Below are positions 166 through 14,999 of a DNA stretch of 14,999 nt, piece by piece. How positions within the stretch are numbered: position 1 is the first letter of the stretch; each line of letters opens with the position of its first letter. The position numbers were made by a program, and so were the translations under genes. A model generated the notes under the pieces. It was not told the DNA's origin. It made no database searches and saw nothing but the letters and a program-made list of their open reading frames with translations. Source of the stretch: a virus. Lineage: Duplodnaviria; Heunggongvirae; Uroviricota; Caudoviricetes. The DNA lies in IMG/VR virus record IMGVR_UViG_2563366959_000014; one strand, given 5' to 3'.

Positions 166-251
166 TTTAATTAAATAATTTACACCACAAAAAGTGCCAA
201 AAATCGCAAAATGACTACACCAGTGACTACACCGTTCGGTGCACTGTATGA

Positions 252-277
252 AACAACGTGGAACAAATAGACACAAG
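252..277 (+). promoter_or_regulatory. Copy A of a composite direct-repeat site (AACAACGTGGAACAA then ACACAAG)
   Basis: Exact 13-mer AACAACGTGGAAC at 252-264, also present at 7749-7761 (+) and 13702-13714 (-); flanking bases also similar. Confidence 0.4.
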
Positions 278-2851: not shown

Positions 2852-3191
2852 GCTCGTCCTCTTCTTCTGTTTCCGGTGGATTTTTACGGCGGCTTATCGG
2901 GTCAAAACCGAGCAAAGAGGCCATTTTTATCATCACTCTTTCCGCGTCGGATTTCGCGCTTAATGCGGGGTTTCTGCTCTCGCCGCCCTGACTGTTAACA
3001 ATGCTGAACCCGCGCGCCGCAAGGTCTGCGACGGCTTTCCGGTATATTGAGTAATTGACGCAATACAGTTCCAGATTACTCCAGTCGGCAGGGGTCAGGT
3101 CTCCCCGTTCCGCAAGCTGCCGCGATTTTTCCCGCCACTGCTTCACGGCGATATCATCCAGGTAGGCGGGGGCTTTCGGTGGTCTTGCCAT
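2835..3191 (-). CDS. Terminase small subunit, P27-family-like (TerS)
   Basis: 118 aa; sequence pattern (PKAPAYLD...LTPADWSNLELYCVNYSIY...ESRNPAL) fits P27-family small terminases; directly upstream of TerL. Confidence 0.85.
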   Translation of the reverse strand: MARPPKAPAYLDDIAVKQWREKSRQLAERGDLTPADWSNLELYCVNYSIYRKAVADLAARGFSIVNSQGGESRNPALSAKSDAERVMIKMASLLGFDPISRRKNPPETEEEDELDRLE

Positions 3192-3240
3192 GCTTATTTT
3201 TTCGCCAGATTATTTTTCAAAAAATTACCGTGCATAAAAA

Positions 3241-3310
3241 TTTGGGGAGGCGGTCGGTTCTGGGCGGGGTCGGGTTCGTCCTGAAAACTCCCCCCACCCC
3301 GTCCGGCTGC
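3241..3310. other. Candidate cos / packaging-recognition region (G-rich block followed by C-rich block)
   Basis: GGGGAGGCGGTCGGTTCTGGGCGGGGTCGGG followed by CCCCCCACCCCGTCCGG, embedded in an AT-rich gap between HNH and TerS, where HNH-dependent cos phages place cos. Positional inference only. Confidence 0.3.
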
Positions 3311-3921: not shown

Positions 3922-4217
3922 CAGTACACCCCCACATCACGGTAAGCCGTCCAGAGTGCGCCAATCGTCATGGGTACGTGTGTTTTTGCGTTATCCGCGA
4001 CAATCTGGCGATTCTCATACAGGTGAGCGATAAACATCATGCAGCCAATCTTTATGGCTGGCGTGAACTCCAGCCCGTCATCAAAGCGCCTGCCTATGTG
4101 TATCTGGCACGCCTCAAGCGATGCGGCAATGTATCCGCTGATTAACTGGTCTTCCTCGTCGCCATCGATGCGGCAATGGAGTTTCACTTCTTCCAGGGTG
4201 ATAAGTTCTTCTGTCAT
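3921..4217 (-). CDS. gp6-like head-tail connector protein
   Basis: 98 aa; N-terminus LITLEEVKLHCRIDGDEEDQLISGYIAAS matches the gp6-like connector pattern. Start and stop overlap neighbouring genes. Confidence 0.8.
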   Translation of the reverse strand: MTEELITLEEVKLHCRIDGDEEDQLISGYIAASLEACQIHIGRRFDDGLEFTPAIKIGCMMFIAHLYENRQIVADNAKTHVPMTIGALWTAYRDVGVY

Positions 4218-4552
4218 TTTTCCGCGCCCTCACGACAAAGAATTTCAAGGCGTGTCCTGGCGGCATCCGGCAGCGGCTGCCCGATGATATTCAGTACACG
4301 CCCCGCCAGCGGCCCCGTATTGACCTTTATCCGGCTGGTGGCGTTGATGTCCTTCCGGTACCGTATCCAGATCCTTACGGTACCAATCGCCAGCTCTGCA
4401 CCCGATGAAATGGCCTCCTTGCTGCTGACCATGTTCACGCTTGCCCAGAGTGTGTGACCGTCCTCCCACGTTTCGAGTATTTCTCCCGTCATGGCTCTGG
4501 TCTGTTTCAGGGTCTGAATCGTTACCCTGTCACGCAGTCGCCCTATGTTCAT
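4214..4552 (-). CDS. Head closure / head-tail adaptor protein
   Basis: Begins MNIGRLRDRVTIQ, with the IRYR and NIIG motifs typical of head-tail joining proteins; ATG at 4552 overlaps the portal stop (ATGA). An alternative start at 4594 is possible. Confidence 0.8.
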   Translation of the reverse strand: MNIGRLRDRVTIQTLKQTRAMTGEILETWEDGHTLWASVNMVSSKEAISSGAELAIGTVRIWIRYRKDINATSRIKVNTGPLAGRVLNIIGQPLPDAARTRLEILCREGAEK

Positions 4553-6374: not shown

Positions 6375-7532
6375 TTAATCGTCGTCCTGTGGCAGTTCCA
6401 GAATCTTGATCGCGTTCGAATCCACCACGCCACCGCCTAAATATTTCTGCGTGAAAATTTTGATGAATCCTGGTTCTGTCAGGTTGTCCGGTCTGGTGCG
6501 AACACCCGTTTCGTGATCAACAATGTAGTAACCGCGTTTGAAGTCACCCAGGGCAATAACGTTATCCGGCATAAACTCCAGATATTCGACCGGAAGGCCC
6601 AGCAACGTATCAGGATCACCAGCCTGTAAACGGTCGCGCCAGATGTAATCACCGTTCGCGTTCTTCACCTTCTGAAGTTTTGCCGCCGTCGTGGAGTTAA
6701 CCACCCAGACCGCGTTTTTGCGGTATTTTTTACGTAATGCAAATTTCAGGTCGATCAGCGGGTCCGCAGATGTCCACGCAAGAGACTCAGAAGGCTTAAT
6801 TACCTGCAACGTACCAAAATCACGCTCTTTGTCGTTCTTCTCTGCACGGGGTACGGATAAAAAGCCTTTTGCTTTTTTGTCACCGTCGCCCACAACCAGA
6901 TCGCTTTCTTCGATTTCCGTGAAGGTGTCGCCAATCTCGCCCGTCAGCCATGAAAGGATGTCCACATCGGAAAAATCCACGATTTCCTGTGTGGTGCGCG
7001 GGTACGCATAGACCGGATACAGCTTAATGCTCACCTCGTTAATCTGCGGGGTGCTGGTCTGTTCGCGTGACTTACCCTCTTCACCGTGGTTAACGGTCGC
7101 ACCGCCAGCGGAAACAAGCTGCTTAAACTCGTTGCTGCTGATTTTCTTCACGGTACAGATGCGGCGCATGGTGGATTCATCCGCCAGCATTCGCATGATT
7201 TCGGTGTTCAGTTCAGGGATAACGGTATAACCACCATCAGCGGGGACACCTGTACTTAATGCGCGGGTTTCACCTGTCAGGATGTAGTTGCGGAGTTCTG
7301 CCGGGTCAGTGGTCTGGCTGCTTTTACCTGGCTTGCTGCGATCTTCGTCTGCAATGGCTTCAAGGCGGGAAATGTCTTTATCGAGGGATTCAGCTTTAGC
7401 GCGTAATTCGTCAAATTTTGCGCCCTCTGCATCGTTAAGGCTGCGGTTTTCTTTTTCCGCGTTCTCCAGCATGTCGCGCATCTGATTTTTAATGGCGGTT
7501 TTCTGCTGGCGTAATTCGATTATTCTCGGCAT
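6375..7532 (-). CDS. Major capsid protein, HK97 fold
   Basis: 385 aa from the ATG at 7532 (MPRIIELRQQ); N-terminal coiled-coil-like delta-domain region followed by a capsid-like body; directly upstream of protease and portal. Confidence 0.9.
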   Translation of the reverse strand: MPRIIELRQQKTAIKNQMRDMLENAEKENRSLNDAEGAKFDELRAKAESLDKDISRLEAIADEDRSKPGKSSQTTDPAELRNYILTGETRALSTGVPADGGYTVIPELNTEIMRMLADESTMRRICTVKKISSNEFKQLVSAGGATVNHGEEGKSREQTSTPQINEVSIKLYPVYAYPRTTQEIVDFSDVDILSWLTGEIGDTFTEIEESDLVVGDGDKKAKGFLSVPRAEKNDKERDFGTLQVIKPSESLAWTSADPLIDLKFALRKKYRKNAVWVVNSTTAAKLQKVKNANGDYIWRDRLQAGDPDTLLGLPVEYLEFMPDNVIALGDFKRGYYIVDHETGVRTRPDNLTEPGFIKIFTQKYLGGGVVDSNAIKILELPQDDD

Positions 7533-7540
7533 AAAAAAAA

Positions 7541-7570
7541 GTCCTGGGGTTAAGTAAGGAACTCCAGGAC
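7541..7570 (-). promoter_or_regulatory. Stem-loop followed by U8, immediately 5' of the capsid start codon
   Basis: GTCCTGG / CCAGGAC stem with a 16-nt loop, then eight T on the minus strand running straight into the capsid ATG; the only AGGA-like Shine-Dalgarno lies in the 3' stem arm. Confidence 0.3.
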
Positions 7571-7748
7571 GCGGCAAAAACTCAACCGTTTTTCATAAGG
7601 AAATCAGCAATCGCACCGATCGTTTTCCCGCCTGGTAATGAATATTGGTGAGCACATTAACAGGCGGGAAAGTGGCCCCAGCGTCCTGGCACCACTGGCG
7701 AGAATAATCATGATTCAGGGCGGGTAAAATATGCCGATCCGGTCAATG

Positions 7749-7773
7749 AACAACGTGGAACGACCACGAACAA
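7749..7773 (+). promoter_or_regulatory. Copy B of the composite direct-repeat site (AACAACGTGGAACGACCACGAACAA)
   Basis: Exact 13-mer shared with 252-264 and 13702-13714; about 215 bp upstream of the capsid operon start. Confidence 0.4.
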
Positions 7774-7790
7774 ATAATTTACAAAAAATT

Positions 7791-7814
7791 ACAAAAAGCC
7801 GGATTGCTCCGGCT
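7791..7814 (-). terminator. Rho-independent terminator (minus strand)
   Basis: AGCCGGA / TCCGGCT stem, 4-nt loop, followed on the minus strand by TTTTTGT; 10 nt after the stop of the 74-aa gene. Confidence 0.7.
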
Positions 7815-7824
7815 GTATGGGTGC

Positions 7825-8049
7825 TCAGTCCCTGATCCCTTTCAGAAATTCTATCAATGCATCTATCTGTTCAGGATTTACTGCCAGCATTTCACCGGAT
7901 AGAGCACATCTCACAAAACCATGCTGATCCTTTTCAATCAGTGCGCCCGTCTCCAGGAATGCGCGGTAATCATTGATGTTCATCGTCTCCATGTTGTCAG
8001 CATGGTATTTATCACGCTGTTTTAATATCTCATCAAATTTCATCGGCAT
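7825..8049 (-). CDS. Hypothetical protein (74 aa), moron-like cargo
   Basis: ATG at 8049 with AGAGGA Shine-Dalgarno; AT-rich relative to neighbours; bracketed by two near-identical terminator hairpins. No family recognised. Confidence 0.6.
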   Translation of the reverse strand: MPMKFDEILKQRDKYHADNMETMNINDYRAFLETGALIEKDQHGFVRCALSGEMLAVNPEQIDALIEFLKGIRD

Positions 8050-8144
8050 TGTTTTTTCCTCTGTTGTGTCTGTTTGTTTCAGATAGTAACTATGCCGGAC
8101 CGTGACGAAAAGCCGGTAATGCGCCATACCGTTTCAACTGGCGC

Positions 8145-8168
8145 AAAAAAAGCCGGATTTCTCCGGCT
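8145..8168 (-). terminator. Rho-independent terminator (minus strand), near-duplicate of 7791-7814
   Basis: AGCCGGA / TCCGGCT stem with a T-run on the minus strand; 6 nt after the PerC-like stop. Confidence 0.7.
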
Positions 8169-8174
8169 GTGTGA

Positions 8175-8447
8175 TTAGCTGTCCTGGTAATTGCGCCATA
8201 TTTCATCACCAGCACCATCTATACCCATTTCGGCATAAGTGCGATTGACTGCCTTTCTCAGGTCTCCGAAATTATCAGGCGGCTCCGGTGGCCTCTGTGC
8301 CTTCCTGGAACATTCCAGCCGTCGCATCGTGATGTGATGCCGTTCCTTGTCTGTCTCCACCAGCATCATGACTTCACCCCATCGCGCCGCCGCCCTCCGG
8401 TAAAATCCTTTCGCTTCGAGTTCTTCCGCTATGCGGTCATGTACCAT
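8175..8447 (-). CDS. PerC-family small transcriptional regulator (90 aa)
   Basis: N-terminus MVHDRIAEELEAKGFYRRAAARWGEVM matches the conserved AE.LE..G.YRRA..RW signature of PerC/Pch proteins as I recall it. ATG at 8447 with GAGGGGGTGA Shine-Dalgarno just after the SSB stop. Confidence 0.6.
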   Translation of the reverse strand: MVHDRIAEELEAKGFYRRAAARWGEVMMLVETDKERHHITMRRLECSRKAQRPPEPPDNFGDLRKAVNRTYAEMGIDGAGDEIWRNYQDS

Positions 8448-8457
8448 CGTCACCCCC

Positions 8458-8868
8458 TCAGAACGGAATATCATCACCGTAAGGGTCATCGCCTCCCGCT
8501 GGTGGCTGATTACCCTGTGTGCCTGTGGTTTTGCGTCTGCTGCCGCCTGGTCGCACCGTTTTCGCACTGATTACGCTGTCGGCAATGACCTGATAACCCT
8601 GACGCGTCTCCCCGTTCTGTCCGGTCCACTGGCTTACCTGCATCGTGCCGGATACGCTGATTACGTTGCCTTTCTCATGTCCTGCCAGTTGGTCGGCCTG
8701 TTTGCCAAATGCCAGGACCGACAGCCATAACGTAGCCTGCCCGTCCTGCGCCTGACTGCATGGCAACGATACCGCCATACGCGCCAGCGTCATCGGTGTG
8801 CCCTTGCTGGTCTGTTTTACCTGCGGGTCGTCCACCAGCCGCCCGTAAGCTGCAATTTGTGCTGTCAT
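8458..8868 (-). CDS. ssb: Single-stranded DNA-binding protein (SSB)
   Basis: OB-fold-like N-terminal region, a Gly/Gln/Pro-rich linker, and the canonical acidic C-terminal tip ending DDIPF. Confidence 0.85.
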   Translation of the reverse strand: MTAQIAAYGRLVDDPQVKQTSKGTPMTLARMAVSLPCSQAQDGQATLWLSVLAFGKQADQLAGHEKGNVISVSGTMQVSQWTGQNGETRQGYQVIADSVISAKTVRPGGSRRKTTGTQGNQPPAGGDDPYGDDIPF

Positions 8869-8877
8869 ATTGCCACC

Positions 8878-9183
8878 TCAGTGAAGCGATCCGGCGTTGT
8901 TCTTTTTCATCTCTTCCATCATTTTTTCAGTGAGCATTACACACTGAAAACCCATGTTTTTGATGTCTACGGGTTTCATGCCTTTGTCAGTGGATATCAC
9001 AGGCAGAATATCCTGATACACATCGCGGTCAGGGTAACTAAGCACACAAAGCGCCCATGATGCCACAGGTGAGGATCCTTCGTCTGTTTCAACCCACCAG
9101 CCTGGTGTAGCTGCGCTTATTTGCAGAATCGTGATCCGTCCGTTGTGCTTGTAAAATTTTTCACCAAATTTTGGTTCGCTCAT
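8878..9183 (-). CDS. Hypothetical protein (101 aa)
   Basis: ATG at 9183 overlapping the upstream stop (ATGA), GGAGAGGTGG Shine-Dalgarno. No family recognised. Confidence 0.6.
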   Translation of the reverse strand: MSEPKFGEKFYKHNGRITILQISAATPGWWVETDEGSSPVASWALCVLSYPDRDVYQDILPVISTDKGMKPVDIKNMGFQCVMLTEKMMEEMKKNNAGSLH

Positions 9184-9425
9184 GATTCCACCTCTCCGGT
9201 TTTAACGTTGATGGTTGTTACCTGTTCCGCTTCGGCAATCTCCCGTTCTGTCAGCGTGGCAAAGTTTGCAGCTGCCGTTGTCATGAATGCGCTAATCAGT
9301 TCGGGATGTGCTTTCGCATATCCTTCCCCGGCGTTGCGGTCGATGATTTTTATCGACACCCTTAACCAGTGTTCCGTCAAATCAAGGGCGTGCGATTGTG
9401 ATTTTTTTGTGTGCTTCGCTGTCAT
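9180..9425 (-). CDS. Hypothetical protein (81 aa)
   Basis: ATG at 9425, first gene downstream of the origin on the minus strand. No family recognised. Confidence 0.55.
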   Translation of the reverse strand: MTAKHTKKSQSHALDLTEHWLRVSIKIIDRNAGEGYAKAHPELISAFMTTAAANFATLTEREIAEAEQVTTINVKTGEVES

Positions 9426-9466
9426 AGGCTTTATCTCACAGCAGTAAATTAAAATTTTTGCGTTTT

Positions 9467-9700
9467 AACCCTTCACCTGTTCACCTTTTGATATTTTATC
9501 TTTTAATTCATAATGTTAAGGGGTGAACAGTTTCACAAAAACTATTCACCAACTGTTCACCACTGTTCACCCTTGAAGCTCAATAAACAATCAAAAAGGT
9601 GAACAGTGAATAGTTTGGTGAACAGTTCATAAATAACTGTTCACCCTATAATATACTGATATAAAAGATATTTATGACAGGGTGAACAGTGGTGAACAGT
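9467..9700. repeat. Replication origin: about ten GGTGAACAG / CTGTTCACC iterons in both orientations within an AT-rich segment
   Basis: Iteron copies at 9478-9485, 9522-9530, 9543-9550, 9553-9561, 9563-9571, 9598-9606, 9617-9625, 9638-9646, 9681-9689 and 9691-9699; the segment lies directly 3' of the primase gene. Confidence 0.75.
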
Positions 9701-9712
9701 TATTCCATAAGT

Positions 9713-11530
9713 TTAATTTTTGCTATCGTCATTAGTGACCGATACACATGACGGCATCCAGTCTTCTGATTCCTCCGTCAGTGTCACGTTTGAACGCAAA
9801 CCGTGCTTCGTTTTCCGTTTCATATACTCCCTGCCATATTCCGCCATTGCCCCCGGCATATCTTTACCGAAGCGCGTCAGTGTTACAGGTTTACCAAACC
9901 CATGTGCCTTCATATAAGCCAGATAGGCATGATAGAGATACCTGCGCGGGCTGAATGGCACAATTTCAGCATTACCCACTAACAGGCCATCACACATTAC
10001 CGACGCCATGAGATAGCCGCAGAAGTCCACCAGCGAATCACCTTCACGCTTTATCGCGAGTGCTTCTTCTGATTTCTGCTGCTCATATAAAAGGCGTCTG
10101 GCTTCGTCCTGGTCAGCAAACCGTGTAAGCAGATGACGAATCACTACCGCCAGCTCACCTTCTATTTTTTCCGCCAGCATTGAATCGCGTTCGTTCTCCG
10201 GTACAACTTCCGAAAAATTGAATATCACCCGACGGCGCGAGATCCCCCCGCTGCGGTCACTGAATGACATGGCGTTATTGTTAACCGCCAGCACTACTGC
10301 CGGAATACGCGTTGAGTAGGGGGCTTTGTGTTTCGGGTCAATTGCCACCTTGTCACCGCCTGTAATGGCCTTAATTCCTGCCCCATCACCAGCGTAGCGG
10401 GTCATATCCGGCATGATAATCAGCGAAAAGCCAACCACTAACGCGCGTTCCCTTGCATCTTCCAGCGCCTTCATGCTTGCCGATACTGTGTTGGCCTTAC
10501 CCGCCAGCATGGTGCAAATCTCCGCCATCACGCTTTTACCACTTCCCCCTGGACCTGTTACCTCAATGAATAACTGCCAGTCGTACCGGTTCGCCAGCAC
10601 CATGAATAATGCAGCCAGTACGCGATCCGCCTTGCGGTCATTCTCAGCCACCGAACGGCGTAACCACTTCCAGAAATTCGGCGCATGTGTTGCCAGCGTT
10701 TCTCCCTCTGCTGGTGGGCTGAAAGGTAATTCACTGGCAATTAACAACCAGTCGTTTTTGTTATGCTCCCGAAAATCGCCTGTCCGGGTATCAAAAACAC
10801 CGTTACTGAATCCAATCAGGTTACGGGCTGTATTCCCCATTACAGGCAAACTTAACTTCATGGTATCGACCGCCGATTTAATGGCGTTCTGCGAATAGCT
10901 GATCTCCGCATCAATGAAAATCTGTGCCATAGCTCGCTGTAATTCTTTATCCTGTACTGGCTCCCATACAACGCCGTTGTAATAGTGAACAGTGTCAGAG
11001 TCAGCATGAATCGCCAGTTCACCGCCATAATGTGCCAGGAGAACTTCGCCGCGTTGACTTGCTCCCATCTGGTTAAGCGCCAGTGATGAAGCGTTATCGT
11101 CTTTTACCCGCTCTTTTTTCTTTACAGGCAGTTCAACTACCTTTTTCTTTTCCGCCTGCTCTGCCCGTTCACGTTCCAGATATTCGCGCCAGTTCTCCCG
11201 TTTCTGGCTGTGCATTCCTTCAGGGTAATAATCAGCATCCCTGACACCTGCCGCTGCCAGTTTCTGCCCGATGGTATTAACAAGCCCCGGACGCAATAAC
11301 CCCGCCTGGTAGAGACGCACGCGATAGCGTCCGTCCGGTACGATTTGCAGGTTGTCCAGTTCGGCAAGTTGTTGCTCTCCAAGCCAGACAGGAGGCACGC
11401 TGTCGCCAGCCAGTCGCCCGTCCTGTTCCTGCCACTGCTTCGCATGTGCCCACGCATCACTACCCGCAAAAATGATGACTTCCGTCATTTTGTCACGTGG
11501 CTGGTGTTTTAAATTTGGCGCTTTTTTCAT
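9713..11530 (-). CDS. Replication primase/NTPase, P4-alpha C-terminal-domain family
   Basis: 605 aa from the ATG at 11530 (MKKAPNL), which overlaps the upstream stop (ATGA) and follows a GGAGAG Shine-Dalgarno. Walker A motif GPGGSGKS and a Walker B-like hydrophobic stretch; followed by the iteron origin. Confidence 0.85.
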   Translation of the reverse strand: MKKAPNLKHQPRDKMTEVIIFAGSDAWAHAKQWQEQDGRLAGDSVPPVWLGEQQLAELDNLQIVPDGRYRVRLYQAGLLRPGLVNTIGQKLAAAGVRDADYYPEGMHSQKRENWREYLERERAEQAEKKKVVELPVKKKERVKDDNASSLALNQMGASQRGEVLLAHYGGELAIHADSDTVHYYNGVVWEPVQDKELQRAMAQIFIDAEISYSQNAIKSAVDTMKLSLPVMGNTARNLIGFSNGVFDTRTGDFREHNKNDWLLIASELPFSPPAEGETLATHAPNFWKWLRRSVAENDRKADRVLAALFMVLANRYDWQLFIEVTGPGGSGKSVMAEICTMLAGKANTVSASMKALEDARERALVVGFSLIIMPDMTRYAGDGAGIKAITGGDKVAIDPKHKAPYSTRIPAVVLAVNNNAMSFSDRSGGISRRRVIFNFSEVVPENERDSMLAEKIEGELAVVIRHLLTRFADQDEARRLLYEQQKSEEALAIKREGDSLVDFCGYLMASVMCDGLLVGNAEIVPFSPRRYLYHAYLAYMKAHGFGKPVTLTRFGKDMPGAMAEYGREYMKRKTKHGLRSNVTLTEESEDWMPSCVSVTNDDSKN

Positions 11531-11826
11531 TTCTGCTCTCTCCACGCGGCAATCATGTTTTTTAGTTCCTGTAGTTTTTTATCAACATCCATACATGACA
11601 CATGGTTATTTCTGGAAAGCGGGATTTCCCGCCTGAATCTGCTAATAAAGATCTCCACGTTCAGCGAACTAAGAAATGAATAGCCATCACGGATAAAATA
11701 CACTCGGTCAAACATCAGTTCTTTTACCGTTACTCTGTTACCGTTCTTATCCAGATAAATAGCGCCGGGGATAATTTGGGGGTGTGCATAACCGCTGGCA
11801 GTCAAGCCAGATAAATATGTTCTCAT
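11527..11826 (-). CDS. Hypothetical protein (99 aa), AT-rich
   Basis: ATG at 11826 with GGGGA Shine-Dalgarno; stop overlaps the primase start. No family recognised. Confidence 0.55.
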   Translation of the reverse strand: MRTYLSGLTASGYAHPQIIPGAIYLDKNGNRVTVKELMFDRVYFIRDGYSFLSSLNVEIFISRFRREIPLSRNNHVSCMDVDKKLQELKNMIAAWREQK

Positions 11827-12785: not shown

Positions 12786-12959
12786 ATGACCGATAAAGAA
12801 TTGACCAAAACATTATCACCGGCACGGAAAAGACGGCGCAGAAAGATAGAGCATGAATCAGAAAGATTCGCGCCATGTGCTTTTGCCCTTGAGCAATTCC
12901 TTAAAGAGTACAGGGAAAAGCGCTCATTGCAGGTATGGCAACGAACTGAACCAGACTGA
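12786..12959 (+). CDS. Small basic hypothetical protein (57 aa)
   Basis: ATG at 12786 with AGGA upstream (alternative start at 12771); contains an RKRRRRK basic tract; followed by a terminator. Confidence 0.4.
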   Translation: MTDKELTKTLSPARKRRRRKIEHESERFAPCAFALEQFLKEYREKRSLQVWQRTEPD

Positions 12960-13228: not shown

Positions 13229-13417
13229 TTAATGAACTGCCTTGCAGCTATCCTTCCAGGCCAGAACCTCGGATAAAGACCAGCCAACGGAACGACCGCC
13301 AAGTTTACGACGTGATGGGAATTGTCCGGCCTTTTCCATGCGGTAGCGACACGTACGGCTAAGGCCGGTTAGTTTTTCGCATTCTTTTTCACGTATAAAC
13401 CGATCAGTGCTTAACAC
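13229..13417 (-). CDS. alpA: AlpA-family regulator / excisionase-like HTH protein
   Basis: 62 aa; KLTGLSRTCRYRMEKAGQFPSRRKLGGRSVGWSLSEVLAWK fits the AlpA/Vis winged-helix pattern. GTG start at 13417 with AGGGGG Shine-Dalgarno at 5-nt spacing; lies downstream of the integrase. Confidence 0.8.
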   Translation of the reverse strand: MLSTDRFIREKECEKLTGLSRTCRYRMEKAGQFPSRRKLGGRSVGWSLSEVLAWKDSCKAVH

Positions 13418-13568
13418 TATTGCCCCCTTTCGTTTCTTAAAGAGTCATCAGGTGTCTTATTGTGTCGTATTGTTCCCGCTAGAGTGATGAATGGCAAATG
13501 TTGGTGGCGGATGGTTTACAGAAAGAGGAATAATCAGGATAAAATCATTTAAATTCATGTTAATACAA

Positions 13569-13599
13569 AGGCATAAAATCTCGTTTTATGCCTTTTTTC
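13569..13599. terminator. Hairpin with flanking A/T runs, likely terminator for the integrase transcript
   Basis: AGGCATAAAA / TTTTATGCCT stem with a 5-nt loop; TTTTTT follows on the plus strand and a U-rich stretch follows on the minus strand. Confidence 0.45.
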
Positions 13600-13689
13600 T
13601 CACGCTTTAAAGCGTGATTCGCTAATGTATAAAAAACCAGTAATATAATAAAAATCAGCGACTTATAAATCTGTATGCTTTTTCGCCTC

Positions 13690-13740
13690 TTGTTCGTGAT
13701 TGTTCCACGTTGTTGCACATTGTTTCACGTTGTATCTGTT
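13690..13740 (-). promoter_or_regulatory. Copy C of the composite site, embedded in five tandem 10-bp repeats (TGTTnCACnT)
   Basis: Consecutive decamers TGTTCGTGAT, TGTTCCACGT, TGTTGCACAT, TGTTTCACGT, TGTATCTGTT; reverse complement contains the exact AACAACGTGGAAC. Lies between the integrase stop and alpA. Confidence 0.45.
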
Positions 13741-13781
13741 CGCATATCCAGTATGCGCATACTGAAAAAACCCGAAAAAAA

Positions 13782-14999
13782 TTATTTTCTTCTGGCTACG
13801 GGTAGCGTGGTTACGTTTTCATGTGCTCCCGCCAGTATCCCTAACCGCTCCGTCCACATATCCAGCGCATCACGTTTCGCATCCAGATAACGGGAATGGT
13901 TATAGACTCGTTGCATCCCTGGCATCTGATGACCTGTAAGCTGCTCCACGACGTGAGGATCCGCGCCTAAATCGTTCAGCATCGTTGTAAAGGTGCGCCG
14001 GATGTCATGCAGTGACCATTGAGGGTGTTTTAGCCTCCTGTGCGCTAATCTGCCGTACTGCGATACGCTGGCCTCCTGTTTCACTTCCCCCAGCAATAAG
14101 CCCGTGTGCCTGTTCTGCTCCACCAGCTTCATGACAAACGGCAGGATCGCTTCCGGTATGGGCCGGAATATTGCGACCTTCGTTTTGCTGTGCTCCTTCG
14201 GAACGGTCCATAGCATTTCCGTAAAATCCCACTCCCCGATCTCCGATAACCTCAGTTCTACCGTTCTGGCACCGAAGACAATCAGGAGGCGGATTAACGC
14301 GACGTAGTAAGGGGAAAATATTTTTTTATCCAGTGCCTGCAATAACTCGCCAAGTTCTTTGGTGCTTAAGACACGCTCGCTTATATCCGGTTTTTTCCCA
14401 ACGTCCGCAACGTTCAGATCGTCCAGAACGTTGCTGATTGCATAGCGCCGCCTACGGCAGAACTTAAGCGCCTGTTTGCACGCCTGTAGCACGAATCCGG
14501 CAGTAACAGGCGTTCGCTTTGCCACCTGGTCAAAACAAGCCAGCCAGTGCCGTAGCTCGCATTTATCCAGCGGCATAGCACCAATGTGCTGTATTACGTG
14601 ATTATTAAGTCGCCTTTTCAGGGCGATATAATCCACGCGGTTTTCCTTTACGTAAGACTCAAGCCAGTAGGTAAGCGCATCGCCAACCGTTACGGGCTTT
14701 AACGCTTCCTGTACGGTGTAATTCATCTCATGACGTGGATTTTTCCCCTCAGCCAGCCATGCGCGACACTGTGCGGCTTTTTCCCTGGCTGCTTTCAGGC
14801 TCAGATCAGGATAACTTCCCAGCTTAATGCGTTCGGGTCGTGTCTCCCTTCCCGTTCCGGCCCTGTATGTGAAATACCATGTCAATTTCCCTGATGTTAA
14901 ATATTTCACGCTCAGGTTTCCGCCATCACTATAAAACGTGTTTTTCTCAGCTGGCTTACCATGAAGTTTCCTTAGCAATGTATCGCTCAGTTTGTTCAT
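13782..14999 (-). CDS. int: Tyrosine integrase, P4-type
   Basis: 405 aa; N-terminal arm-binding-like region (YSDGGNLSVKY...WYFTYR) and a C-terminal catalytic region with the conserved HDIRRT and a tyrosine near the C-terminus. ATG is the last three bases of the window. Confidence 0.9.
   Translation of the reverse strand: MNKLSDTLLRKLHGKPAEKNTFYSDGGNLSVKYLTSGKLTWYFTYRAGTGRETRPERIKLGSYPDLSLKAAREKAAQCRAWLAEGKNPRHEMNYTVQEALKPVTVGDALTYWLESYVKENRVDYIALKRRLNNHVIQHIGAMPLDKCELRHWLACFDQVAKRTPVTAGFVLQACKQALKFCRRRRYAISNVLDDLNVADVGKKPDISERVLSTKELGELLQALDKKIFSPYYVALIRLLIVFGARTVELRLSEIGEWDFTEMLWTVPKEHSKTKVAIFRPIPEAILPFVMKLVEQNRHTGLLLGEVKQEASVSQYGRLAHRRLKHPQWSLHDIRRTFTTMLNDLGADPHVVEQLTGHQMPGMQRVYNHSRYLDAKRDALDMWTERLGILAGAHENVTTLPVARRK

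Follow-up and report, generated by a model that had tools for sequence, protein, structure and literature searches.

A short open reading frame lies at positions 8175-8447 on the minus strand of the 14,999-nt viral sequence analysed here (hereafter, the window), between a gene for a single-strand DNA-binding protein and a set of packaging genes, and it reads as a PerC-family regulator. As it stands this annotation adds little, since both the gene and the kind of element that carries it are known. The question of interest is what such a gene is worth to a satellite: PerC-family genes hold a fixed place, after ssb, in the islands of many enterobacterial genera. Two roles had been proposed in the initial annotation, activation of the island's late genes and cross-regulation of host genes, alone or together.

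The gene runs from an ATG at 8447 to a stop codon at 8175-8177 and encodes 90 aa; at the same coordinates RefSeq names, in Escherichia coli FORC_028, a ‘PerC family transcriptional regulator’ (WP_016241305.1). The ATG was chosen over the GTG at 8567, from which a 130-aa ORF could be read, for three reasons: the Pfam match begins at that Met, the N-termini of the family align there, and a Shine-Dalgarno sequence overlapping the ssb stop codon sits 10 nt upstream of it. The latter element (8452-8459, minus strand; GAGGGGGT) was read from the sequence and contains GAGGGGG. It belongs to the 10-nt junction that separates perC from ssb (8458-8868, minus strand, stop codon at 8458-8460; Pfam SSB, E 2.1e-16), the two genes being directly adjacent and, to all appearances, tightly coupled. 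The sole Pfam match of the product is PerC (PF06069), with an E value of 1.3e-43 and 147.6 bits (the gathering score being 22.6 bits), residues 1-89 aligning with positions 1-89 of the 90-position model; the protein also matches PHROG 994 over its full length (E 1.6e-47). The membership of the PerC/Pch family that had been claimed for it is borne out by this profile homology.

Nothing in the sequence suggests that the gene is defective. In an alignment of 38 diverse representatives of the family, down to 31% identity, the invariant residues L10, E11, G14, R17, R18, A19 and W23 are all kept in the window protein, as are the near-invariant D4, A7, R22, C46, M74 and G75, and its size fits the usual value of about 90 aa. 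The median dN/dS among 17 distinct alleles from related loci is 0.23, which indicates a functional coding gene under purifying selection. Truncated or fused variants do exist (a 78-aa form, partial forms and the ssb-perC fusion described below) and might be taken as signs of a passenger that is decaying and has no current function. With such a dN/dS value, and with the family-invariant residues, the start, the Shine-Dalgarno and the terminator all intact, we consider this very improbable. The homology, start and substitution pattern thus confirm the ORF as real, correctly placed and, as far as its sequence can tell, functional.

The surroundings of the gene leave little doubt as to the type of element. 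A 1.9-kb segment of the window (7600-9500) is 100% identical to DNA of an island that E. coli FORC_028 carries in its tqsA gene; the RefSeq annotation places the identical island, of about 15 kb, between the two halves of that gene. On the minus strand, the early part comprises, in this order, int, alpA (13229-13417; Pfam Phage_AlpA, E 1.2e-16), an Icd-like gene, a DUF4222 gene, the primase gene, two small ORFs, ssb and perC. After perC come a 75-aa ORF and the genes for the major capsid protein (6375-7532, annotated in RefSeq and first of the packaging operon), the prohead protease, the portal, head closure and connector proteins, an HNH protein, TerS and TerL. An int-alpA-pri-rep set accompanied by its own capsid, protease, portal, connector, HNH, terS and terL genes, in about 15 kb and with no tail or lysis genes, is what defines a capsid-forming PICI (cf-PICI), and the initial annotation was right to place the gene on a satellite. 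Gene by gene, the island resembles at least 40 IMG/VR loci as well as Sp7 of strain Sakai. EcCIEDL933, the prototype of the cf-PICIs, had long gone under the names cryptic prophage CP-933C, O-island 51 or Sakai Sp7 (bioRxiv 10.1101/2022.09.08.507074; PMC3378721; PMC6092414). Judged by its gene content, the window element is a cf-PICI closely related to EcCIEDL933, a sister that uses a different attachment site.

The same kinship holds for the protein. The window PerC and Sakai PchE (ECs_1588) are of equal length and identical at 82 of 90 positions (91%), without gaps; the eight substitutions fall mostly in helix 3 and in the C-terminal tail. The order ssb, pchE, 75-aa ORF, capsid operon is common to the window and to Sakai Sp7/EDL933 CP-933C (O-island 51, EcCIEDL933). 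Where they were aligned, between the end of ssb and the beginning of the capsid gene, the window and Sp7 are 96% identical at the nucleotide level, and both terminators and the leader described below are found in the two islands, which are of the same element type. The identity with ECs_1588 and the CP-933C/Sp7-type island position are those of the PchE orthologue group (group 3 Pch). The islands differ in that the window one sits in tqsA and Sp7 between roxA and phoQ, and in that the DUF4222 gene product of the window is only 29% identical to that of Sp7. From these alignments, the gene is a PchE orthologue carried by a cf-PICI; hence its annotation is right but already known.

More distant relatives are PerC, from the pEAF plasmid of EPEC, and PchA, PchB and PchC of EHEC. 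They belong to the same Pfam family, have in common with the window protein the invariant N-terminal LE..G.(Y/W)RRA..RW motif and, like it, are small and encoded by mobile elements, the pchA, pchB and pchC genes sitting at the ends of lambdoid prophages. The window protein is about 35-45% identical to plasmid-borne members of the family, pEAF-type PerC included. The setting is not the same: the window perC lies in a satellite replication module, EPEC PerC on a virulence plasmid. Function separates them too, since PerC and PchA/B/C activate LEE1/ler, the property that gave the family its name, whereas the PchE group is reported, as far as the secondary sources go, not to activate LEE1.

The first description of Gram-negative PICIs already mentioned PerC homologues in those of E. 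coli (PMC6092414). EHEC has five Pch genes that form three groups, PchE being group 3; groups 2 and 3 are dispensable for ler/espA expression, and PchD and PchE have little effect on the LEE (PMC6265319). According to a secondary source (PMC11773190), LEE1-lacZ fusions were unaffected by the PerC homologues of EcCIEDL933 and EcCICFT073, and a lack of LEE1 effect for PICI-borne homologues is also mentioned, again at second hand, in PMC6265319. The statement that such proteins switch on host virulence loci, made in the initial annotation for the family as a whole, is therefore inapplicable to this subgroup if these secondary accounts are followed. Cross-regulation of host genes fares better. When expressed from a plasmid, pchE decreases csgD expression, curli and biofilm formation (PMC6265319) and increases flhDC expression, flagella and motility (PMC7369912). 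For a protein 91% identical to PchE, an effect on csgD/curli and flhDC/flagella thus has published backing, which the LEE has not; these phenotypes come mostly from plasmid overexpression, the effects of deletion being small (PMC6265319). The steady level of pchE is low and drops upon SOS induction (PMC6265319, PMC7369912). In the PerC literature we found no test of any PerC gene in the cycle of the satellite itself.

Could PerC nevertheless be what turns on the packaging operon? The region that separates the two was dissected for this question. The gene had been described as lying just upstream of that operon; it does precede it in gene order, but not immediately, since the perC stop codon and the capsid ATG (7532) are 643 nt apart and the gap holds the 75-aa ORF with an intrinsic terminator on either side, followed by a leader of about 290 nt. 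Terminator 1 (8144-8168, minus strand), found with a terminator scan and by folding, directly follows the perC stop codon and consists of a 7-bp G+C-rich stem with a GAAA loop and a T7 tail (stem at 8151-8168; -12.6 kcal/mol). The 75-aa ORF (7825-8049, minus strand), a hypothetical CDS in RefSeq, belongs to PHROG 1957 (E 2.4e-41). Terminator 2 (7792-7814, minus strand) was found in the same way, and the 27 nt that include it and its flanks (7793-7819) form a direct repeat, 93% identical, with the 27 nt around terminator 1 (8147-8173). From this arrangement, perC would seem to close the transcript of the replication module as its last cistron, insulated from the capsid operon unless transcription becomes terminator-resistant.

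Several signals are packed into the leader. A 16-nt motif, TTTGTAAATTATTTGT (7770-7785, minus strand), unique in the window, marks the start of the conserved packaging module; it contains TAAATT, as lambda PR' does. Three GAACAA hexamers with 10-bp phasing (7748-7773, plus strand) lie in the control region of the capsid operon. Further down the leader there is a 17-bp inverted repeat (7624-7671; 94% complementary, 14-nt spacer) and, abutting the capsid ATG, a hairpin, GTCCTGG...CCAGGAC, followed by T8 (7533-7570, minus strand), which may be terminator-like or may sequester the ribosome binding site: the sole AGGA upstream of the capsid ATG lies in its 3' arm. A consensus scan of the coding strand between 7300 and 9800 gave no sigma-70-like promoter. 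A leader devoid of a good sigma-70 promoter implies that the capsid operon needs an activator or an antiterminator. [quoted passage not shown] In the cf-PICI literature we found no description of how the packaging operon is switched on.

PerC is one candidate for this factor: made from the early/replication operon, it would act at a promoter within the 290-nt leader. The lack of a good sigma-70 promoter and the helper-independent capsids are in its favour, and so is gene order, an early module followed by perC and then by a late module both here and in EcCICFT073, where PerC comes after ssb and before a different late module. The distribution of the gene bears on this idea. We gathered 58 IMG/VR loci with the capsid protein and searched the ORFs of all six frames with an HMM derived from the 38 diverse PerC proteins; those with enough upstream sequence were tabulated. 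As these loci are related sequences and not independent events, the counts describe a distribution only. Where the capsid protein is at least 97% identical to that of the window, PerC was found upstream of the capsid gene in 35 loci out of 36 (34 also with ssb), and the 75-aa ORF in 17 of the 36. Such a retention speaks for the late-activator idea; it could also mean that, in this lineage specifically, the gene serves the cycle of the element itself. The remaining close relative (L033) was at first counted as PerC-less, then dropped as such because it turned out to carry a deletion that fuses codon 24 of ssb to the perC tail; its control region is intact, which argues against a PerC-dependent late operon, with the reservation that the functionality of this element is uncertain.

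The picture is reversed among the seven loci with a 65-69% identical capsid protein. PerC is present in one, and in the six others it was not found even at E<=10 with filters off, whereas the 75-aa ORF is found in six of the seven (at about 41-45% identity). The six PerC-less loci keep AlpA-like genes, the primase and the whole packaging operon. They also keep the core of the motif, TTTGTAAAT. Every cf-PICI locus examined has a single copy of this core, some 220-250 nt before the capsid ATG, and it is retained in the diverged loci although the remaining leader is not alignable. The full 16-mer is exact in most cf-PICI loci and slightly altered in three (L062, L068 and L069); the motif is absent from EcCICFT073.

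Conversely, PerC is found where this capsid operon is not. Our scan of genomic contexts, with one genome per species, yielded 17 PerC loci from Escherichia, Enterobacter, Kluyvera, Atlantibacter, Shimwellia, Pantoea, Erwinia, Lonsdalea, Chimaeribacter, Raoultella and Citrobacter; the query alignment was biased towards members of the LE[AK][KR]G[LF]YRRA type, so that the 17 contexts are not an unbiased sample. In 14 of them PerC is downstream of, and co-oriented with, satellite genes (int, alpA, DUF4222, pri or ssb). The gene directly before perC is ssb in nine, seven of which show the same TGA-GGGAG-ATG junction as here, so that this junction recurs in other genera. Homologues of the capsid, portal and terminase genes of the window are missing from all 17, as are homologues of the late genes of EcCICFT073; in two, the genes downstream of perC include ones for PRiA4_ORF3-like and antirestriction proteins. 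The family is also present in 171 plasmids and in a few phages, for example in an IS-rich region of the P1-like phage phi456. From the two scans together, it follows that the companion of PerC is the replication module of satellites, ssb above all, rather than the capsid operon.

The repeats of the control region lead in another direction as well, since they recur around int and alpA and none is tied to PerC. Phased GAACAA arrays match five times in the window, against 0.01 expected by chance. Besides the three hexamers upstream of the capsid gene, one array (13680-13725, minus strand) closely follows int and immediately precedes a promoter-like site that faces alpA, and another, of GAACAA type (251-276, plus strand), is near the island end that adjoins the tqsA fragment. 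An A+T-rich hairpin in the alpA leader did not score as a terminator in the scan. Sakai Sp7 carries arrays at each of its att ends, behind int and ahead of the capsid gene; EcCICFT073 carries them at both ends and after int, with none before its own late module. When diverged cf-PICIs were searched for phased hexamers upstream of the capsid gene that would co-vary with repeats elsewhere in the element, no matching arrays were found. The placement of the arrays in the window, Sp7 and EcCICFT073 fits arm-type Int sites or sites for a Xis/Vis-like AlpA.

AlpA has further claims to the role. It is needed for EcCIEDL933 induction and transfer (bioRxiv 10.1101/2022.09.08.507074), activates its own promoter and, when overexpressed, drives EcCICFT073 excision and replication (PMC6092414). 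In Pseudomonas aeruginosa, an AlpA is an antiterminator that is loaded at a promoter element and allows RNA polymerase to bypass intrinsic terminators (PMC7969949, PMC9371919). The kinship of that protein with the window AlpA is at the level of the Pfam family: compared with the PDB chains of the P. aeruginosa antiterminator, the window AlpA gave no match at E<0.01, for which reason antitermination by AlpA is an idea that goes no further than Pfam-level kinship. The single structure match of the window AlpA is 8c3t, an ‘AlpA family phage regulatory protein’. In satellite P4, the AlpA homologue Vis also regulates the P4 late promoters. Altogether, the shared repeats would point to AlpA or Int, and AlpA is probably a better candidate than PerC for regulating the late operon. 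The late-activator role given to PerC in the initial annotation is unsupported: two terminators stand between gene and operon, the operon and its motif persist in six of seven diverged cf-PICIs without PerC, PerC follows ssb in satellites without the corresponding capsid or terminase genes, the protein has no DNA-binding motif (see below) and induction and transfer call for alpA. We regard it as unlikely.

If PerC does not drive the capsid operon, how might it act? The AlphaFold model of the window protein, computed from the 38-sequence alignment (pLDDT 85.8), has five helices (5-13, 16-29, 33-50, 60-73 and 79-85); the fold is predicted to be all-helical, the three N-terminal helices being TPR-like. 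Neither Pfam nor the predicted fold reveals a recognisable DNA-binding motif, a PDB sequence search found no relative, and domains of late regulators (Q antiterminator, Ogr/Delta zinc finger, LtrC-type) were not detected in the protein by Pfam and NCBIfam. A lead came from NCBIfam: the ANR_neg_reg model (NF033650) aligns with residues 7-52 at 20.2 bits (E 3.8e-4), which is below its cut-off of 32, and it is matched by 33 of the 38 diverse PerC members, the best E value being 3.2e-7. Residues A7, E11, A19, W23 and R42 of PerC correspond to A10, E14, A22, W26 and R47 of the ANR signature (five of its seven residues), with a three-residue offset that was called constant. Homology between the N-terminal three-helix region of PerC and the ANR proteins (Aar, Rnr, Cnr) is therefore likely on alignment grounds, with a score too low for PerC to count as an ANR. 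Like the ANRs, PerC is small and helical and lacks a DNA-binding motif. PerC differs from the ANRs, which are of about 54-70 aa, by a conserved C-terminal part (helices 4 and 5, with M74 and G75). ANR proteins bind directly to AraC-family activators and to H-NS, Aar binding H-NS and AggR (PMC5570504, PMC4983702).

Read literally, this kinship would make PerC an ANR-type anti-activator, that is to say a repressor of an AraC/XylS-family regulator of the host or of a helper phage. Two observations besides the N-terminal homology agree with this. The PerC-family gene EcCIMP1_025 is carried, as here, by an E. coli PICI with AlpA and primase; its product, about 40% identical according to its authors, silences LEE1-lux in Citrobacter rodentium, an effect unreported for PchE, and an ANR-like role was proposed for it (PMC11773190). 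This is the only paper of the ANR literature in which we found PerC mentioned. The other observation is the repression of csgD by overexpressed pchE (PMC6265319). The sub-threshold ANR score and the C-terminal extension that ANRs lack weigh on the opposite side, together with the island annotation, which contains no AraC-family gene, next to perC or elsewhere; a partner may be encoded in another part of the genome. Moreover, cloned post-ori genes of EcCICFT073, presumably with perC among them though this is unstated, left lambda unblocked with the exception of c1503. We hold a pure anti-activator to be about as doubtful as the late activator.

The N-terminal ANR homology and the TPR-like prediction together favour an action of PerC through protein partners or H-NS. 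Studies of PchA go the same way: it has no homology to DNA-binding proteins, activates LEE1 only against repression by H-NS/StpA/Hha, and reduces their occupancy (PMC4764244). A point on the opposite side is that PchA is described in that work as binding DNA regions in vivo. The most economical reading of these analogies is that PerC proteins would be ANR-like modules with a C-terminal extension, acting on nucleoid silencing complexes or on master regulators.

Such an activity might serve the satellite itself. PerC would then be a counter-silencer in the element's own cycle, relieving H-NS-type silencing and providing positive feedback once AlpA has fired, with host effects as by-products; candidate targets would include the intergenic region between int and alpA (34% G+C), the stretch that follows the primase gene, and the leader of the capsid operon. 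The window does show G+C dips, to 0.34 at 13501-13800 and to 0.40-0.42 at 9301-9900. Islands of the int-alpA-pri type keep PerC in its place after ssb in Escherichia, Enterobacter, Kluyvera, Atlantibacter and Shimwellia. Pantoea, Erwinia, Lonsdalea and Chimaeribacter, genera that are not known for the LEE, also have PerC in islands with int/alpA. The restriction of PchA to H-NS/StpA-repressed targets (PMC4764244) and the fact that no repressor is known for Gram-negative PICIs (PMC6092414) fit too. Against such a role speak the many cf-PICIs that do without PerC, the finding of PerC in only some E. coli PICIs, where it was treated as a virulence accessory gene (Fillol-Salom 2018; PMC6092414), and a pchE expression that drops, instead of rising, on SOS induction (PMC6265319). 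We see it as a minority possibility, though a better one than either of the two regulators discussed before it.

The reading we prefer, with a probability of roughly 0.55 for the whole, is that the window gene is a PchE orthologue, the AlpA-dependent last cistron of its transcript, and encodes a trans-acting accessory regulator, not a dedicated activator of the capsid operon. PerC would be made, coupled to ssb, at the end of an AlpA-dependent replication transcription unit closed by a strong terminator. It would act in trans by contacting nucleoid-associated or master regulators, the candidate partners being silencing complexes of the H-NS/StpA/Hha type and possibly AraC-type activators, and would thereby change how silenced, AT-rich loci of the host are expressed, for example csgD/curli and flhDC/flagella. 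The capsid/packaging operon would be controlled separately, by AlpA (or Int) at the conserved motif and the phased GAACAA repeats. One published observation fits poorly with expression solely from an AlpA-induced operon, namely the low steady level of pchE and its fall upon SOS induction, which may mean that there is an unrecognised promoter.

To conclude, the comparison shifts attention from PerC to what lies upstream of the capsid gene: the conserved 16-nt motif, the phased GAACAA repeats and the terminator-like structures. As for the PerC family, a broader and speculative proposal can be made, which we rate well below the preferred reading. Its members would be ANR homologues with a C-terminal extension that originally belonged at the end of the replication operon in AlpA-type satellites across the Enterobacterales, and they would open the AT-rich control regions of these satellites by way of nucleoid silencing (H-NS/StpA/Hha) or of a regulator. 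If this is true, PerC gives feed-forward induction to elements for which no repressor is known, and the virulence regulators PerC of EPEC and PchABC of EHEC are later exaptations of a factor of the satellite life cycle.

The packaging module of the island opens with a short conserved motif, TTTGTAAATTATTTGT, which lies on the minus strand at window positions 7770-7785 and is also found at position 10435 of the Sakai Sp7 locus (L002) and in loci L060-L069. In all cf-PICI loci examined there is one copy per element, ~220-250 nt 5' of the capsid ATG, and the motif is kept even where the capsid proteins are only 65-69% identical and the leaders otherwise unalignable; in three of the diverged loci the copy is slightly altered. 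The EcCICFT073 element is without TTTGTAAATTATTTGT. Conservation of the packaging module begins at this sequence, a candidate promoter or loading site.

Two structures are present between the motif and the capsid gene. The first is a 17-bp inverted repeat whose arms are 14 nt apart (7624-7671, i.e. ~90-140 nt 5' of the capsid ATG). The second is a hairpin followed by T8 (7533-7570), the 3' end of which falls exactly at the capsid start codon. Because this hairpin and its T8 run abut the start codon, and the sole AGGA sits in the 3' arm, the arrangement suggests attenuation or translational masking of the capsid gene.

The control region of the capsid operon also carries GAACAA hexamers phased at 10 bp (7748-7773, plus strand), an array restricted at this location to the cf-PICIs. 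Similar 10-bp-phased arrays are found near the island end (251-276, plus strand) and directly after int (13680-13725, minus strand). Sakai Sp7 has them at 2828, 4178-4223, 10471 and 18056, and the EcCICFT073 locus (L020) at 12867, 14196-14251 and 24086; in both, arrays are present at the two att ends. In diverged cf-PICIs, a check for co-variation between the capsid-side hexamers and repeats elsewhere turned up no matching arrays. The GAACAA arrays are probably binding sites of the Int arm type or the AlpA/Vis type.

A 75-aa ORF assigned to PHROG 1957 (7825-8049, minus strand) is flanked by two terminator repeats (7793-7819 and 8147-8173) that are 93% identical. It is found in 17 of the 36 close cf-PICI loci, and therefore resembles a cassette that comes and goes via recombination between its terminators. 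In PerC-less diverged cf-PICIs a homologue (~41-45% identity) stands immediately 5' of the capsid gene. The hypothetical 42-aa CDS of RefSeq (8090-8218, minus strand), which overlaps the perC 3' end and the terminator, is probably a spurious call. In L033, a close E. coli cf-PICI, an in-frame deletion joins ssb codons 1-24 to the last ~29 codons of a perC allele (fusion at 3142-3303); this natural ssb perC double mutant has an intact capsid control region.

Escherichia phage phi456, a P1-like phage-plasmid (L079, 45463-45771, within an IS-rich region), and the 70-kb Klebsiella phages MY01 and KpCHEMY26 carry distant members of the PerC family (35-39% identity). Several PHROGs families of phage 'transcriptional activators' match only over the ANR-like N-terminal 50 residues. 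Immediately 5' of the primase gene, a 99-aa DUF4222 protein (11527-11826, minus strand) is encoded at the position held elsewhere by RgdR (ECs1581), the O-island 51 regulator of LEE and motility, with which it shares only 29% identity.

The insertion site of the island lies within tqsA, which encodes the AI-2 transporter and is split in two (positions 1-165 of the window and past 14999; also seen in the FORC_028 locus, L001), whereas the prototype EcCIEDL933 and EcCICFT073 are inserted between roxA and phoQ. The window island is therefore near-identical cargo for which both the integrase and the attachment site differ.
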